A DNA stretch of 64,000 nt, taken from Candidatus Woesearchaeota archaeon UBA525 (GTDB lineage Archaea > Nanobdellota > Nanobdellia > Woesearchaeales > UBA525). Of the stretch, positions 1,131 to 27,880 are shown in pieces. The stretch spans positions 18,196 to 82,195 of the forward strand of contig DAGG01000013.1 in the NCBI GenBank assembly GCA_002498125.1. Direction: 5' to 3'. Both the position numbers and the translations under genes were made by a program. Positions within the stretch are counted from its first letter, which is position 1, and each line of letters begins with the position of its first letter. A model generated the notes under the pieces. It saw only the letters and a list, made by a program, of their open reading frames with translations. It made no database searches and had not been told where the DNA came from.

Positions 1131-1685
1131 GTGAGCAGGAGTGAGGTGGCAAGCTTGAAATCTCGTAAAGGCTCAATGCAGCTCAGCATCGAAGCAATCA
1201 TCATCCTGGTAATAGCCATTGTCCTCCTGGGACTCGGCATAGCGTTCATCAAGAACTTCTTCGGCCAAGCGGCTACGCCGCTCGAAGGGCAGCTTGGATC
1301 ACTGAAGAGCTGCAATGCAAATGCGCAGACACCGTTCTTACCCACGACATATAAGCTTCAGCAAGGGACTAAAGAAGCAGGAGTAGAGGTGTGTGTTTTC
1401 AACAACGAAGCCGCTAAGCTTGTTGATGCCAAAATCAAGATAGATGAATGTCTTACCCCTGCAGGCACCACAGTGAGTGCCGCCAACAGCAAGATAAAGA
1501 TTCAGACCCTCAAATTCGATCTCGACCGCAGCAAGTCAGGCCTCATCCCAATCACCATCGATGCGACCACGACCACTACTGCAGACATAGGAACCTATAT
1601 CTGCGGCATCAAGGTCGAGAAGGATAGCGCACTTGCGTCCGATCCGTCACTCGGTCCGGTCCAAGTCACAATCGAGGTGCAATGA
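1131..1685 (+). CDS. archaeal type IV pilin-like protein (class III signal peptide) with beta-rich C-terminal domain
   Basis: N-terminus SRKG|SMQLSIEAIIILVIAIVLLGLG resembles a prepilin (class III) signal peptide. The stop overlaps the start of the next ORF (ATGATGA). Confidence 0.5.
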   Translation: MSRSEVASLKSRKGSMQLSIEAIIILVIAIVLLGLGIAFIKNFFGQAATPLEGQLGSLKSCNANAQTPFLPTTYKLQQGTKEAGVEVCVFNNEAAKLVDAKIKIDECLTPAGTTVSAANSKIKIQTLKFDLDRSKSGLIPITIDATTTTTADIGTYICGIKVEKDSALASDPSLGPVQVTIEVQ

Positions 1686-1909
1686 TGAAACGCACGATAA
1701 CACGGCAGGAGGAGTTCGAGATTATGAAGCTTGTCATGGACAAGTTCTTGTGGCTCGGAGTCATCATCATGGCGTACGGCCTGTACAAGATCATCAGCCT
1801 ATCGGAAAGCTTCTGGTTCGGGCTGAGCATCCTTGCAGGCGGGGCAATCATCATGTTGCTCTTCGTGTGGATCCTCATGAAGGAGTTCAACTACGTCAAG
1901 CACCCATGA
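1682..1909 (+). CDS. small two-TM membrane protein, translationally coupled between the two pilin-like genes
   Basis: 75 aa with two hydrophobic helices. It overlaps both neighbours by 4 nt. Confidence 0.35.
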   Translation: MMKRTITRQEEFEIMKLVMDKFLWLGVIIMAYGLYKIISLSESFWFGLSILAGGAIIMLLFVWILMKEFNYVKHP

Positions 1910-10042: not shown

Positions 10043-11635
10043 ATGGTTCGTTTTTCACATCTAGCGGCGGCACTCTTGACCTCGGCCACAGTGGTCGGAG
10101 CGCAGACATTGGAAGATAGCTTGCCGAAGTTCTCATTCGAAGCGCCGCGTGAGAAGATGACTGGAACCGTCAATCTCACTGTCAACACAGAGGACCCGAA
10201 CGTGAAGAGTGTCAGCTTTTTCCTCGATGAGATGAAGCACAACTCACGTAGCAGGAATAGCCCTTTCCATCGTGAAATATTCATCGGGCCAATCCCCAAC
10301 CCTCGCAGGCTGTGCGCTGTCGGCTACGATGGGCGACAGAGCCCAATCTACGAGCACTGCACCGTGCTCAACCCAGGACATCGTGCTGCATTCTTCGATT
10401 TCATCACCCCACTCTCTGGACAATATGTGGAGGGAGAAGTACCTGTGCAACTCCAAGTGCACTTGCCCTCGTACGAGAACGTCACAAATATCGAATTCCA
10501 GTACGGCCTTGCAGAGAGCTATACAAAAGCAAACCTGGAACTCATCGGCCAGAAGGAGAAACAGAATCCACACAAAGTGCAGACATACGCCACCTCAATC
10601 TGGATCGACAACCAGTTCACTGTACTAGACGCGACTGTCAAGACAGACCGCCGCCCACCTATCTCCGACACCATCATCGTGAACAACCCCCCGGGCAGGT
10701 TCAGCGAAGCGATAGATGTGAACGCAGCCGAGCGCCTCGTCAGCACGAGAGGAGAGGATGTAAAAAAGGAGAATTTCCGGGTAGTTGACAGGAAGACTGG
10801 CGAGAATTACGAGGTGCTCGAGGCACGCCTGCTCAAAGACATCCCTTTCTCATTCGGTATCGCACTTGACATGTCGAACTCACTGCGGCACGGCACGATG
10901 CTCAGGCAGACGATAGCTCAGCAATTCATAGAGAATATCATGAAGCCCACAGACGCCGCATTCATCTACGGCTTCGGGGATTACATCAGGGAATTCATGC
11001 CCTGGACGAATGACAAGCAGGCGATACAGGAGAAGTTGCTCTCGCTAGGTGACTCGAGATCCTCGATTACGCCAATATACCGCACACTGCTCGATCTCGT
11101 GTATGAGTTCCAGGGCGAACAGGGAGCGCGTGCAGTGATCTTCATCAGCGACGGTGTCGAATTGCTCGACGACAAGCAGGAACCATCAATCCCAGACGGA
11201 CAGAAAATAGGCCTGCCTTTGTTCCACGAGTACCGTGTGCCGCAGAAGGAGGTGCTGGAGTATCTCGCAAAGTCAGGGGTGACGGTGCATACTATAGGTA
11301 TCGAGACCCATTTCCAGGACGGCAGCCGCGTCCAGATAAACAGCGAAGGGCTCAAGGAGATCGCTCGCGTCAGCGGAGGCAACTATTACCATTTGACGCT
11401 GCAAGTGGCAGATGATTACCTGCAGAAGCCAAGTGAAAAGGCAACGCCTGAGGAGAGAAAGAAGATCGCTCAGGAGAATATTAAGAGGATGAAGGAGAAG
11501 AACAAGAGAGATATGGAATCGCTCCAGCAGGTGCAGAGGATATTCGCTGAACTGGAGAAAGACATCAGGACACAGTACTTAGTGACATATAGGCCGACGC
11601 AGCCGAACGCAGTGGAAATCAAGTATTCTCAATAG
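10043..11635 (+). CDS. secreted von Willebrand factor type A (VWA) domain protein
   Basis: Sec-type signal peptide MVRFSHLAAALLTSATVVGA. MIDAS-like DMSNS motif in IALDMSNSL. TATA gcTATAAAAAag about 25 nt upstream. Confidence 0.55.
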   Translation: MVRFSHLAAALLTSATVVGAQTLEDSLPKFSFEAPREKMTGTVNLTVNTEDPNVKSVSFFLDEMKHNSRSRNSPFHREIFIGPIPNPRRLCAVGYDGRQSPIYEHCTVLNPGHRAAFFDFITPLSGQYVEGEVPVQLQVHLPSYENVTNIEFQYGLAESYTKANLELIGQKEKQNPHKVQTYATSIWIDNQFTVLDATVKTDRRPPISDTIIVNNPPGRFSEAIDVNAAERLVSTRGEDVKKENFRVVDRKTGENYEVLEARLLKDIPFSFGIALDMSNSLRHGTMLRQTIAQQFIENIMKPTDAAFIYGFGDYIREFMPWTNDKQAIQEKLLSLGDSRSSITPIYRTLLDLVYEFQGEQGARAVIFISDGVELLDDKQEPSIPDGQKIGLPLFHEYRVPQKEVLEYLAKSGVTVHTIGIETHFQDGSRVQINSEGLKEIARVSGGNYYHLTLQVADDYLQKPSEKATPEERKKIAQENIKRMKEKNKRDMESLQQVQRIFAELEKDIRTQYLVTYRPTQPNAVEIKYSQ

Positions 11636-11640
11636 AACGA

Positions 11641-11690
11641 TGGACCCGGCCAGATTTGAACTGACCATTCTCACTTCGTTCGGAGCCCGG
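11641..11690 (-). pseudogene. tRNA 3'-half-like fragment (degenerate copy of tRNA-Val T-arm and acceptor 3' strand plus conserved trailer motif)
   Basis: tggacccggccagatttgaactgacc matches 20 of 26 nt of the tRNA-Val 3' end. It has no 5' half, so it is not a functional tRNA. Confidence 0.5.
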
Positions 11691-11707
11691 TTCGTATTTT
11701 ATGAGAA

Positions 11708-11779
11708 TGGACCCGCCCGGATTTGAACCGGGGACCTCTACCGTGTGAAGGTAGCGCTCTACCACTAAGCTACGGGTCC
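11708..11779 (-). tRNA. tRNA-Val (anticodon CAC), CCA not encoded
   Basis: Manual fold GGACCCG-TA-GCTT-AGTGGTA-GAGC-G-CTACC-TTCACAC-GGTAG-AGGTC-CCCGG-TTCAAAT-CCGGG-CGGGTCC-A. Confidence 0.8.
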
Positions 11780-11870
11780 GCTTCGCGTCCCCTACTTTGC
11801 CTTCTCTACGAACGCAAAGTACGGGTCCTTATCCTGGAGTGCTGCGAAGGGCTTTATAAAAATATCGTGG

Positions 11871-13797: not shown

Positions 13798-14256
13798 ATG
13801 GGATTCGCGAAGAGGATAGGATCTGCGCTCCTGCGATGGATCAAACGCACGCTCGGACTGCACCCCATACGGGATATCACCATCAGCGCAGGAGTGCTCG
13901 ACGACATCAGCGACATGGCAGGCTCAGCGCACCCCAAGGAGATGCTGGCGTTCATGTCATCAACCCGCGGTAACCGGCACGGCATCGTGTATATCGATGA
14001 GATCCAACTACAGGCGTACGTCGCCTCGGAGGATAGCGCGACATTCCACACGTGGAACATGCCGACAGTGACTGGCATCGTAGGCACCGTCCATAGCCAT
14101 CCCGGCGGCAGCAAACGTCCATCAGATGCTGATCTGCACCTGTTCTCGAAATTCGGATATATCCACGCCATCATCGGAGAACCGTACAGGCCGAGGGATA
14201 TCAGGTTCTACAATAAGGACGGCATCGCTATCGCGGTGCGTGTCGTCGATGATTGA
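13798..14256 (+). CDS. JAB/MPN (JAMM) metalloprotease domain protein
   Basis: JAMM motif E...HSHPGGSKRPSDAD. TATA gATTATTTAAATat upstream. Confidence 0.65.
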   Translation: MGFAKRIGSALLRWIKRTLGLHPIRDITISAGVLDDISDMAGSAHPKEMLAFMSSTRGNRHGIVYIDEIQLQAYVASEDSATFHTWNMPTVTGIVGTVHSHPGGSKRPSDADLHLFSKFGYIHAIIGEPYRPRDIRFYNKDGIAIAVRVVDD

Positions 14257-15729: not shown

Positions 15730-15824
15730 AAAGAGTGAAGATAGAAAGAGTGAAGACGCCCCCACGGGGCAATCTCACTAGCGTTCGGAGCCCCGCGGGG
15801 ACCACGAATGCAGCGAAGCGAAAT

Positions 15825-15896
15825 ACGCCCCCACGGGGAATTGAACCCCGGTCTCAGGGTTCGGAACCCTGAAGTCTATCCGTTAGCCTATGGGGG
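15825..15896 (-). tRNA. tRNA-Arg (anticodon CCG), CCA not encoded
   Basis: Manual fold: acceptor GCCCCCA/TGGGGGC, anticodon arm CAGGG-TTCCGAA-CCCTG, T arm CGGGG-TTCAATT-CCCCG. The D stem has one mismatch, shared with the second Arg tRNA. Confidence 0.7.
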
Positions 15897-16078
15897 CAGG
15901 ATCATTGAATCCTGATACAGGGGAACTCATTCCCCTCGCGCCGGCGTAGCATTGAACTATTTATAAAACTGACTTCCTCGTGAACGCACAGATTATTTTC
16001 CCTAAGTGAAGAAAACGTGCGCATTCTTTGTCCATTCATCACCTAACATATTTAGGCATACGGAGCGTAGGATGCCAT

Positions 16079-16426
16079 ATGACTAAGAAACGCACACGCG
16101 CCAGCACCAGAACTAGCGCTGCGATGCAGATGGTTGCTGCAGGCACATCCACAATCGCGGATTCACTCCTCACCACGACCGCATACAGGCTCAGGGAGGA
16201 GACCGACATCCTGTTCGCCAAACTGGAGGAGCATGCGCTCAATCTCAGGTCCCGCCTGATGAACGGCATGTACTTCTCCATGATGATGGCTGCGGCGACC
16301 GTTTTTCTTATCGTGTCATTCCTGCTCTTCATGGTGCAAGTAGGGCTCTCATGGGCCACGGCATTCCTAATCGGCAGCGTCATACTCTTCGTGGCAGCCA
16401 TAGCATTCCATCTCATCAAGAAGTAA
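16079..16426 (+). CDS. YqjE-like inner-membrane protein (DUF1469 / holin-like family)
   Basis: Basic N-terminus then two adjacent TM helices. ATG at 16079 within the TTG-initiated track ORF. Confidence 0.4.
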   Translation: MTKKRTRASTRTSAAMQMVAAGTSTIADSLLTTTAYRLREETDILFAKLEEHALNLRSRLMNGMYFSMMMAAATVFLIVSFLLFMVQVGLSWATAFLIGSVILFVAAIAFHLIKK

Positions 16427-16440
16427 AGGAGGCGATACGA

Positions 16441-16806
16441 TTGGCAAAGAGAAATAGCAGATCAACACGTAACTCGAACTCTCGCAAGGGAACACAAGCA
16501 TCAACCACCACAGTTAGACGTGCGCAGAAAAGGATAGATTCCACTATCGACCGCGCAGCGAATAGGGTGAGCAGCGGCATGAAACGTGCGGTGAACAAGG
16601 CCGCTACCCGATCGACGGCAAGTGAACGCAAGCTGCGCGCGCAGACGCGCAAGCAGATGGACCGCGCCAAGAAGACGCTGAACAACGCTGACCGCAAGGT
16701 CTCAGGATACATAAGGAACAACCCGAAGAAAGCCGTAGCCATGGCCGCAGGCATCGGAGCGGCAGTGACTGCAGCAGTGGCCGCAGCGATGCGGAAGAGA
16801 AGGTGA
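16441..16806 (+). CDS. ElaB/YqjD/YgaM-like protein (DUF883), C-terminal membrane anchor
   Basis: C-terminus YIRNNPKKAVAMAAGIGAAVTAAVAAAMRKRR matches the DUF883 tail. Proposed TTG start 7 nt after AGGAGG; alternatively ATG 16351 overlapping the upstream gene. Confidence 0.5.
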   Translation: MAKRNSRSTRNSNSRKGTQASTTTVRRAQKRIDSTIDRAANRVSSGMKRAVNKAATRSTASERKLRAQTRKQMDRAKKTLNNADRKVSGYIRNNPKKAVAMAAGIGAAVTAAVAAAMRKRR

Positions 16807-16810
16807 ATTT

Positions 16811-16996
16811 ATGGACGCGACAAAAAAGATAGGACGCGCCATGGATAAGACTGCGAGGGCTATCAAGCGTGGCACAAAGAAGCTGACGCGCGCGGTAGGC
16901 ATCGGCAAGAAATCGAGCCGCGGATCGAAATCCCGCTCCGGCAGATCATCCACGCGCAACTCTAGCGGCAAGCGCGTCACCGGGAAGCGGAGGTGA
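16811..16996 (+). CDS. small basic protein (61 aa, Lys/Arg/Ser-rich)
   Basis: ORF directly follows the DUF883 gene. Low complexity. Confidence 0.3.
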   Translation: MDATKKIGRAMDKTARAIKRGTKKLTRAVGIGKKSSRGSKSRSGRSSTRNSSGKRVTGKRR

Positions 16997-17220
16997 GTCC
17001 CGTCCTATTTTTCTCCTATTTTGACGAGGTGAAAAAACTATTGGACCGTATCGATAAGGAGGTGGAGAGCTACGGCAGGGAAGTAGGCCGTGTGCTGGAC
17101 AAACTTGATGACCTCGTGGGACCGGAGCCGCGCAAGAGGACCACGAAGAGAGCGACTACCAAGAGGGCGACGAAAAGAGTGGTAAATAGACCTGTCAAGA
17201 AAAACGCCCCCGCGAGGTAA
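16993..17220 (+). CDS. small coiled-coil protein with basic tail (75 aa)
   Basis: Overlaps the previous ORF by 4 nt; C-terminal KR-rich repeats TTKRATTKRATKR. Confidence 0.3.
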   Translation: MSPVLFFSYFDEVKKLLDRIDKEVESYGREVGRVLDKLDDLVGPEPRKRTTKRATTKRATKRVVNRPVKKNAPAR

Positions 17221-17275
17221 TCTCAGTTGCCTTCGAGACCTCGCGGGGACCTTGAATGACTGAAAGGAATGAGAA

Positions 17276-17347
17276 CGCCCCCGCGAGGAATTGAACCCCG
17301 ATCTCCAGGACCGCAACCTAGTGGTCTATCCGTTAGCCTACGGGGGC
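17276..17347 (-). tRNA. tRNA-Arg (anticodon GCG), CCA not encoded
   Basis: Manual fold GCCCCCG-TA-GGCT-AACGGAT-AGAC-CA-CTAGG-TTGCGGT-CCTGG-AGAT-CGGGG-TTCAATT-CCTCG-CGGGGGC-G. TATA gcTTTTTAAAc about 35 nt upstream. Confidence 0.7.
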
Positions 17348-17830: not shown

Positions 17831-18000
17831 GGTTCATCGACCTCTCCCGCGATTATTAAACTCTTTGGTGCCTGTGCCGCGGACATTTACCTATGGAAGA
17901 TCTCGCCGCTGCACTGTCGCGCTCATTCCATTCGCGCGTCGCAGCGGCTCAGAACTACTCCAAGGCGGCACTAAGCAGATGTCGATGTGACTGGTATTCC

Positions 18001-27475: not shown

Positions 27476-27547
27476 GCGTCTGTAGTGCAGTGGTTAACAT
27501 ACGAGCTTCCCAAGCTTGTGACCCGGGTTCGACTCCCGGCAGACGCA
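27476..27547 (+). tRNA. tRNA-Gly (anticodon CCC), CCA not encoded
   Basis: Manual fold: acceptor GCGTCTG/CAGACGC, anticodon arm CGAGC-TTCCCAA-GCTTG, T arm CCGGG-TTCGACT-CCCGG. Confidence 0.75.
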
Positions 27548-27599
27548 TAGCAGCCTCGGCGAAAAAACATATAATCTACACTATCACTCCCCACACCCA

Positions 27600-27860
27600 A
27601 TGGCCACCCACGATCTCGAGACAGTCACAATCCTCACATTCAAAGATGGAGATGAGGAGTTCTCAAGGTCCTACGATAGTCTTCTCAACCTTAAGTCGGG
27701 CGACGTGGTGAATCTCCTCATCGGCGGAGGGAATCCGCCGGTACGCGCCGGCAATTACATCGTCAGGATATCGACCATACACAACCAGATGGGAATCGAC
27801 CTTGAGGAGAAGGGACCTGACGGCCTCTACAAATACTTCGATCTCGAATACATAGGCTGA
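27600..27860 (+). CDS. hypothetical protein (86 aa)
   Basis: ORF only. Confidence 0.3.
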   Translation: MATHDLETVTILTFKDGDEEFSRSYDSLLNLKSGDVVNLLIGGGNPPVRAGNYIVRISTIHNQMGIDLEEKGPDGLYKYFDLEYIG

Positions 27861-27880
27861 CAGCTCCGGCAGACGCATCG

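Follow-up and report, generated by a model that had tools for sequence, protein, structure and literature searches.

In the 64,000-nt stretch of the Candidatus Woesearchaeota archaeon UBA525 genome analysed here (contig DAGG01000013.1, positions 18,196 to 82,195, referred to throughout as the window), the tRNA-Val(CAC) gene is followed by a short trailer and an imperfect copy of its own 3′ end. We tentatively read this trailer as belonging, in decayed and probably chimeric form, to a family of small structured units found behind tRNA 3′ ends, which would be non-autonomous insertions in DPANN archaea. Two better preserved members of the family stand behind the two tRNA-Arg genes of the same window, and others were found behind tRNA genes of distant archaeal lineages. 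The parts of the tRNA-Val locus that bear on this reading are given below, position 1 being the first letter of the window.

11779..11708, minus strand: tRNA-Val(CAC), found by ARAGORN and scored at 73.4 bits by Rfam; no CCA encoded
11692..11707, minus strand: spacer X, TTCTCATAAAATACGA, whose first 6 nt form with the last 3 nt of tRNA-Val the left arm of a 9-bp inverted repeat
11685..11691, minus strand: ACCGGGC, an anti-strand relic with a weak fold, homologous by hand alignment to ACCGGGT of the orthologous unit in relative L001
11667..11684, minus strand: conserved GA motif of the Val unit, TCCGAACGAAGTGAGAAT, with its core hairpin CGAAC-GAA-GTGAG at 11682..11670
11666..11641, minus strand: copy B′ (T-arm, acceptor 3′ strand and discriminator), GGTCAGTTCAAATCTGGCCGGGTCCA, matching the last 26 nt of its own tRNA at 20 positions

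The trailer itself is 41 nt long (11707..11667, minus strand; TTCTCATAAAATACGAACCGGGCTCCGAACGAAGTGAGAAT) and is followed by the copy and then by TCGTTCTATT. A preliminary description of this DNA had reported the trailer with a core common to both Arg trailers, the 20/26 copy and the inverted repeat, and all of these were recovered. The arms of the repeat, CCATTCTCA and TGAGAATGG, lie at 11710..11702 and 11673..11665. When the 150 nt downstream were shuffled 20,000 times, the best match to the tRNA end averaged 12.3 positions and never exceeded 18, so that 20 was not attained once; elsewhere in the window, no unrelated site matched at more than 18 of 26 positions. The T-loop, acceptor 3′ strand and discriminator of the copy are identical to those of tRNA-Val (16/16); the five T-arm differences all fall in the T-stem, and each of them preserves pairing (CCCGG/CCGGG to GTCAG/CTGGC). 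Assembly error, which the preliminary description had raised as a possible source of the fragment, was countered by an independent Joint Genome Institute (JGI) assembly that is identical over all three unit loci, the sole difference being a 14-nt indel in the neighbouring von Willebrand factor A (vWA) gene.

The two tRNA-Arg genes and their units are arranged as follows.

15897..15826, minus strand: tRNA-Arg(CCG)
15757..15825, minus strand: unit of tRNA-Arg(CCG) (47.0 bits; fold z = -2.3)
15802..15791, minus strand: anti-strand of this unit, GTCCCCGCGGGG
15790..15770, minus strand: motif loop, CTCCGAACGCTAGTGAGATTG
15769..15757, minus strand: copy of the tRNA end, CCCCGTGGGGGCG, identical at 13/13 positions
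17347..17276, minus strand: tRNA-Arg(GCG)
17205..17275, minus strand: unit of tRNA-Arg(GCG) (50.6 bits; fold z = -4.6)
17250..17239, minus strand: anti-strand of this unit, GTCCCCGCGAGG
17238..17218, minus strand: motif loop, TCTCGAAGGCAACTGAGATTA
17217..17205, minus strand: copy of the tRNA end, CCTCGCGGGGGCG, identical at 13/13 positions and followed by TTTTT

In both Arg units the 12 nt before the loop are complementary to the copy, giving a 12-bp helix of the length of stacked acceptor and T stems. The two Arg trailers are intact versions of the unit that is seen in degenerate form at tRNA-Val. A covariance model (R1) was built from 22 units and used to scan 350 kb of loci fetched from other genomes and contigs (numbered with the prefix L) as well as, with filters off, the whole window. 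In both sets it found units only behind tRNAs, and its only matches in the window were 17255..17205 (50.6 bits), 15807..15757 (47.0 bits) and 11702..11653 (34.8 bits, E = 4e-6), all three of which share the GAGA(A/U)U subtype of the motif and each of which lies directly behind a tRNA.

Decay has gone furthest in the Val unit, which has the lowest covariance-model score of the three and a fold z of -0.7 against -2.3 and -4.6 for the Arg units; its weak fold is due to the relic ACCGGGC no longer being complementary to the downstream copy. To this extent the preliminary description was right to call the Val repeat diverged, but its suggestion of an older event was not supported in that form. The copy matches tRNA-Val(UAC) of relative L004, whose T-arm reads GTCGG/CCGGC, at 23 of 26 positions by hand count, compared with 20 of 26 for its own tRNA, and being nearer to the UAC isoacceptor it has an imported or chimeric look. 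The anti-strand relic, on the other hand, fits the CAC type. A UAC-like copy beside a CAC-type relic points to exchange between loci, and the Val unit is thus probably chimeric.

Across the family, an intact unit consists in order of the tRNA end (B), spacer X, an anti-B segment, a GA hairpin, B′ and a T-rich tract. Anti-B is about 12 nt long and complementary to the T-stem and acceptor 3′ strands of the tRNA, while B′ repeats the last 11-25 nt of the tRNA together with the next T; whole units measure about 45-95 nt. Anti-B and B′ pair over about 12-13 bp to give a lower helix, on which the GA hairpin forms a cap. Because this helix has the length of stacked acceptor and T stems, the unit can be said to mimic a tRNA acceptor/T minihelix. 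The hairpin carries the signature C-GA-AN-loop-N′U-GA-G with tandem G·A mismatches, and the consensus runs from the lower helix through a small asymmetric internal loop, a C-G pair, tandem G·A and A·G, an A-U pair and an N-N′ pair to a loop of 3-4 nt, often GNAA.

This structure is borne out by the alignment of the 22 units, in which 80.8% of cells pair compared with 57.8% in shuffles, and by a covariation score of 0.568 compared with 0.185 for shuffles and about 0.15 for slid partners, no shuffle out of 500 reaching the observed value. The loop-adjacent pair varies between C-G, G-C and U-A; just below the G·A step, C-G and U-A are both seen; and by eye the pair formed by columns 18 and 38 alternates between U-A and C-G. 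Folding of the hairpin favours the tRNA strand over its complement (mean difference -2.6 kcal/mol, 16/22 units, p = 0.008), so that the relevant fold would be single-stranded and strand-specific, that is, RNA or top-strand DNA. The two strands of the lower helix differ in constancy: by our tally, about 21 of 26 units had a B′ identical to B over 12 nt, whereas anti-B pairs in only about 75% of cells, often by G·U or with A·G mismatches. In L008, B′ differs from the tRNA end at 3 of 13 positions and the predicted hairpin pairs it with another upstream segment; in L026 a T-run lies within the spacer, before the hairpin. No Rfam family corresponds to the unit: Rfam reported only tRNA at its gathering threshold, gave nothing useful at E up to 10 for the Val locus and L009, and matched no tRNA or sRNA (small RNA) within the units.

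The wider distribution was explored with a pattern in which a T-loop was followed, after a gap, by the motif, for which roughly 5 chance matches would be expected and of which the tRNA-end copy was not a part. Thirteen genome loci were retrieved, seven archaeal (three Woesearchaeota, one Nanoarchaeota and three metagenome-assembled genomes labelled Methanosarcinales) and six bacterial. The tRNA-end copy and the full architecture were present at all seven archaeal loci, and the copy at none of the six bacterial ones. A scan of metagenome contigs added about 10 further distinct archaeal examples, so that the architecture is now found behind at least 17 tRNA genes, of types that include Val, Arg (four anticodons), Ser, Pro, Gln, Phe, Gly and Asp. 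Full-text literature searches returned no description of such tRNA-trailing units, and the family is apparently undescribed so far. Clostridia contigs (Eubacterium, Lachnospiraceae; L007 1939-2010, L029, L030 and L010 1187-1260) contain a very similar GA hairpin, GCTCCGAACGRAGTGAGGATGC, behind tRNA, amid repeated GCGAAGC-loop hairpins and without a tRNA-end copy; it may be a chance likeness or a motif common to both domains. A Chromatiaceae tRNA-Arg (L015, ~1620-1800, minus strand) has 19 nt of its 3′ end repeated 156 nt downstream, which looks like an ordinary bacterial att-type repeat.

Comparison with relatives revealed both filled and empty sites. The isoleucyl-tRNA synthetase (IleRS) of the window is 50-54% identical to Woesearchaeota and Nanoarchaeota proteins and 61-76% identical to those of closer relatives. 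The nearest of these, L003 (IleRS 76%), is collinear over IleRS, the vWA ortholog (E = 2e-44) and the convergent tRNA-Val, and has neither unit nor copy at this empty site. A collinear relative lacking the fragment was the very outcome that the preliminary description had named as support for insertion. In the syntenic L001 (IleRS 67% identical), by comparison, the site is filled: tRNA-Val (13918-13989) is followed by a 69-nt trailer in which GGACGCGCCCGG, complementary to the tRNA end at 11 of 12 positions, precedes the motif TCCCGAACAACGTGAGGACA and then 25 nt that repeat the T-arm and acceptor strand perfectly (13825-13849). The T-loop of this tRNA is itself unusual (TCCGAAT, with C at position 55 where U, as pseudouridine, is normal), and the downstream copy carries the same change. 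Elsewhere L005 (IleRS 61%) has a 40-nt hairpin with a different loop and then a 15-nt copy of the tRNA end, tRNA-Val(UAC) of L004 has no unit, and L002 partly keeps the synteny and has no tRNA at the site. Roughly half of the tRNAs across the loci are without a unit.

Units also occur in tandem and around other DNA. Tandem arrays were found in L013 (a pair of diverged units whose motifs are of different subtypes), L014, L027, L032 and L033; in L032 tRNA-Asp is followed by two identical variant units with a 4-bp upper stem. In L009 a tRNA and its unit are followed by a 770-bp segment with two small open reading frames (ORFs), which gave only a weak MazE/AbrB-like signal, and then by a second unit identical to the first. 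Direct repeats of a tRNA end enclose 316 bp at the window tRNA-Gly and about 650 bp in L001, where a near-copy of the tRNA-Arg end lies about 650 nt downstream. In L020 (3513-3685, plus strand), tRNA-Val(GAC) is followed by three GA motifs, and a 25-nt T-arm copy appears to be split at the T-loop/T-stem junction by about 85 nt of further unit sequence, which suggests a nested insertion at position 60/61. The tRNA-Gly locus of the window reads as follows.

27476..27547, plus strand: tRNA-Gly(CCC)
27548..27877, plus strand: 316-bp insert through the end copy, with an 86-aa ORFan at 27600..27860 and the end copy at 27866..27877; GA motif absent

The copy of the tRNA-Gly 3′ end, CCGGCAGACGCA, is identical at 12/12 positions, lies 318 nt downstream and forms with the tRNA the repeat that encloses the ORFan. 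A homolog search with this ORF returned matches from its own genome only. ARAGORN and Rfam found four tRNA genes in the window, Val(CAC), Arg(CCG), Arg(GCG) and Gly(CCC), none of which encodes CCA, and the 10 kb past the window end held no additional tRNA. Taken together, the Val, Arg and Gly copies mean that all four window tRNAs have a duplicated 3′ end, and three of the four bear the common structured unit. In its last 40 nt the tRNA-Gly insert shows a weakly motif-like TCTCGAA...CTGACAG.

The filled and empty sites, the arrays, the identical units around cargo and an exact B′ beside a drifting anti-B favour insertion and deletion at the level of DNA at the tRNA 3′ end; the last of these is expected if recombination renews B′ while anti-B simply drifts. 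We infer that the units would be non-autonomous insertions, gained and lost by recombination at the tRNA 3′ end, in which the tRNA 3′ end would serve as recombination core and be duplicated at every insertion, and that a recombinase encoded elsewhere would perform both steps. They would also lie inside the tRNA transcription unit and presumably be transcribed with the tRNA and fold on that strand, the hairpin unit being a small passenger that would mimic the acceptor/T minihelix. In a more specific form of this proposal, which we consider unlikely, the putative recombinase would recognise both the folded acceptor/T minihelix and the unit hairpin mimicking it, the latter in an attC-like role, and this structure-specific recombination system at tRNA 3′ ends would let units and cassettes accumulate in arrays.

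Several points weigh against reading the units as insertions. At 45-95 bp, a unit is too short to pass through a double-stranded circle of the ordinary kind as intermediate, and plain target duplication would not produce a strand such as anti-B, which is specific to its tRNA. Unequal crossing-over between B and B′ could give arrays and losses without transposition, and conservation of the motif over phylum-level distances suits a host function equally well. The tRNA association of the fetched loci is partly built in, because the discovery pattern demanded a T-loop; only the covariance-model scans test this association independently. The cargo inserts at tRNA-Gly and L009 have no convincing terminal hairpin and may therefore be a separate phenomenon. 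Neither the Pfam annotation of window regions 0-20 kb and 36-57 kb nor the cargo ORFs showed a recombinase domain, genes for an integrase, casposase, transposase or reverse transcriptase were not seen near any unit, and a crude tyrosine-recombinase regular expression matched none of the ORFs in the loci. Searches of IMG/VR and of phage and plasmid collections with the consensus motif and unit gave no match, and hence no free or viral form.

The main rival explanation, which is possible though in our view less probable, is that the unit is a vertically inherited, cis-acting RNA module of the host. It would be co-transcribed with the tRNA and combine an acceptor/T-like minihelix with a protein-binding GA hairpin, possibly K-loop-like (kink-loop-like) and bound by L7Ae, and it would be gained by local duplication and lost when deletion joins the two copies of the tRNA end. 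With similar reserve, its role might lie in 3′-end processing (as a second RNase Z site or an RNase P-like site), in termination within tightly convergent intergenic regions, or in some other tRNA-linked function. This explanation accounts as well as insertion does for a motif that is conserved and covarying across distant lineages, for the stronger, G·U-containing structure on the tRNA strand and for T-runs that follow B′ and not the tRNA (TTTTT at Arg(GCG), L006 and L017). It is also in keeping with units that stand between housekeeping genes with no mobile-element genes around them, with the single motif subtype in this genome, as expected from co-evolution with one binding factor, and with leader hairpins from tRNA 5′-end copies that also lie within the transcript; the re-paired hairpin of L008, if real, would suggest selection on the hairpin. 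A partial precedent is offered by Nanoarchaeum equitans, in which dicistronic tRNA-sRNA precursors are cut by RNase Z (PMC3491384). These resemble the units in placing a small structured RNA directly behind a DPANN tRNA, with a 5′ end made by RNase Z, as is predicted for the unit. What an RNA module leaves unexplained is why B′ should match B exactly while anti-B mismatches are tolerated; it also sits poorly with the close relative L003 that lacks a unit at the same tRNA, the many other tRNAs without one, the loss of the Val helix while tRNA-Val is intact, the T-run in the spacer of L026, and the element-like behaviour of the identical L009 units around cargo. The two readings are not mutually exclusive.

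Far lower probability attaches to an integrase scar, to a decayed duplicate of the tRNA and to chance. Integration at the 3′ ends of tRNA genes is a classic phenomenon, and the preliminary description had pointed out that the copied segment is the part that integrases normally use as attB. In the simple scar explanation, which we regard as improbable, an integrase-bearing virus or plasmid would have entered the tRNA 3′ end and duplicated it, and later deletions would have reduced the DNA between attL and attR to a short random remnant. Inserted DNA flanked by direct repeats of the tRNA end (13/13 at both Arg genes, 20/26 at Val, 12/12 at Gly), a relative with an empty site (L003) and arrays sharing the repeat are indeed features of integrase att duplication, and insertion at the tRNA end is the part of that proposal that we retain. 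Random remnants, however, would not share one covarying hairpin over many tRNAs and phylum-level lineages, and a strand complementary to the att core is unexpected in a remnant. The small size (45-95 nt) and the mostly 12-14-nt identity also differ from att duplications, and integrase fragments were absent from the window regions and cargo ORFs named above, the inserts being 41-57 nt long. The locus is thus not just a scar; the insert of 41-69 nt is in itself a conserved structured unit with an anti-strand, recurring behind many tRNAs in distant genomes. A still less probable origin is the decay of tandem tRNA duplicates, the units being mini-tRNA pseudogenes that lack positions 8-48 and have had their T-loop replaced, and the 5′ and 3′ copies at Val being the outer remains of an older tRNA-Val gene. 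Both Arg anti-B segments do equal the acceptor 5′ strand plus the T-stem 5′ strand save at 2 positions, and Val has both an upstream 5′-end copy and a downstream T-arm/acceptor copy with a perfect T-arm. The Val copy comprises the full T-arm and acceptor 3′ strand, and the Arg units the stem strands only. Many tRNAs would nevertheless each have needed an identical deletion and replacement motif of independent origin, at wobble positions anti-B does not copy the 5′ strands of the tRNA, and Rfam detected no tRNA in the units.

Several known systems share features with the units. The cis-mobilizable elements (CIMEs) known from work on Streptococcus integrative and conjugative elements (ICEs) and CIMEs accrete in tandem at att sites, and are alike in their tandem arrays and in having small integrase-less elements beside cargo. 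In integrons, attC sites form imperfect, strand-specific hairpins that pair a 3′ core with a 5′ inverse core, and arrays with ORFan or toxin-antitoxin-like cargo grow at one attachment point. The anti-B/B′ helix, 75% paired and covarying, is like this inverse core/core hairpin in form only: there is no IntI, attI or GTTRRRY core, the core is the local 3′ end of the tRNA, and the cargo ends without a clear hairpin. Repetitive extragenic palindromic (REP) sequences, bacterial interspersed mosaic elements (BIMEs) and MITE-like repeats (MITEs being miniature transposable elements with inverted repeats) are short, imperfect, non-coding, multi-copy palindromes of 3′ intergenic regions, possibly terminators. 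The units fit this description as hairpins, yet their stems are locus-specific and copy the adjacent tRNA, only the loop motif is common and their position at the tRNA 3′ end is fixed. A casposon at the 3′ end of tRNA-Pro made a fixed 15-bp duplication that overlaps the tRNA by 5 bp (PMC5137440); common ground lies in the T-arm region of a tRNA gene directing insertion and in the duplication of a short adjoining segment. The repeat of the units, in contrast, is 11-25 nt long and lies almost wholly within the tRNA, terminal inverted repeats appear weak or absent and there are no Cas1 or PolB genes, and a casposon-type duplication was rejected for its wrong register and length. In the three window units the start of the spacer is complementary over 5-9 nt to the motif's 3′ part, which most units of other genomes do not show.

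Among RNA motifs, the GA motif CCGA ... GUGAGGA resembles the C′/D′ K-loop of box C/D sRNAs (CUGA ... RUGAUGA). The units nevertheless lack a terminal box C (RUGAUGA) or D (CUGA), their guide-length arms pair with each other and copy the neighbouring tRNA and not an rRNA target, and the covarying loop-adjacent pair (C-G, G-C, U-A) argues for a closed helix over a K-loop. A standard K-turn (kink-turn) was rejected as there is no 3-nt bulge beside the G·A pairs. Hand checks likewise removed a bulge-helix-bulge, the bulges not being staggered by 4 bp, and a hammerhead, for which the order of the CUGANGA/GAAA core is unfit. The idea that the tRNA body pairs with B′, as an intron or an alternative 3′ end would imply, was discarded because the tRNA is contiguous and high-scoring and L003 has no unit.

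The duplicated ends and shared unit in this window, and the recurrence of the unit across DPANN lineages, suggest that archaeal tRNA loci have a common feature so far left unannotated. Mobile units would represent a tiny element mimicking its own target, and such hairpin-dependent targeting would bear on tRNA genes as integration hot spots and on the entry of small cassettes into reduced genomes. If they are functional RNAs, they would be a new tRNA-linked class in organisms known for unusual tRNA processing. In either case the covariance model lets annotators separate units from tRNA fragments and att scars.

Upstream of tRNA-Val, the leader (region 11780-11835) and the DNA ahead of it contain the following features.

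11853..11862, minus strand: TATA-like box TTTTTATAAA, read from the sequence, about 75-85 nt upstream of tRNA-Val
11828..11820, minus strand: exact 9-nt copy of the tRNA-Val 5′ end, GGACCCGTA, within the leader
11789..11825, minus strand: leader hairpin CCC.GUACUUUGC...GCAAAGUA.GGG (-23.3 kcal/mol, z = -5.57; 0/200 shuffles fold equally well)
11786..11780, minus strand: GCGAAGC mini-hairpin abutting the 5′ side of tRNA-Val

The TATA-like box is a candidate promoter of tRNA-Val, which would give a leader of roughly 55 nt; the window also has a transcription factor B (TFB) gene and archaeal TATA-like boxes. The leader hairpin begins at the exact 9-nt copy of the tRNA 5′ end. This copy had been noticed in the preliminary description and dismissed as within chance expectation, which undervalues it: GGACCCGTA occurs twice in the window, the 5′ copy being nowhere else, and only about 5e-4 occurrences are expected by chance per 150 nt. 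Leader hairpins on a copy of the first 9 nt of the tRNA were seen at the window tRNA-Val, in L024 (two in tandem) and in L013. The leader of tRNA-Arg(CCG) has a degenerate hairpin, GAGGGGAA-TGAG-TTCCCCTG.

Turning to neighbouring DNA, the 14-nt indel relative to the JGI contig lies within the vWA gene at 11413-11426 (plus strand), where it alters the length of the ORF from 459 to 530 aa and where a third assembly (L050) stops exactly. A homolog search with this vWA neighbour returned its own genome only, plus one distant match of 23% identity. The gap between the two Arg tRNAs is 25 nt in L001 (19701-19725) and 1.38 kb in the window, a difference in line with insertion; here the extra DNA (16028-17220, plus strand) holds the Arg(GCG) unit and four small, very basic opposite-strand ORFs with no Pfam match. 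The 69-nt intron of tRNA-Arg(CCT) in L013 (7700-7790, minus strand) contains the box C-like AATGATGATCA and may encode a C/D sRNA. Two motif-like sites of the window, 31938 and 6066, fall within coding sequence and were set aside as chance matches. At 17905-17948 (minus strand), between two minus-strand genes and with no adjoining tRNA, an intergenic hairpin, GCCGCTGCGACGCG-CGAATGGAATGAG-CGCGACAGTGCAGCGGC, has the GA-mismatch core of the units, and the GA hairpin may be a more general module in the source genome.

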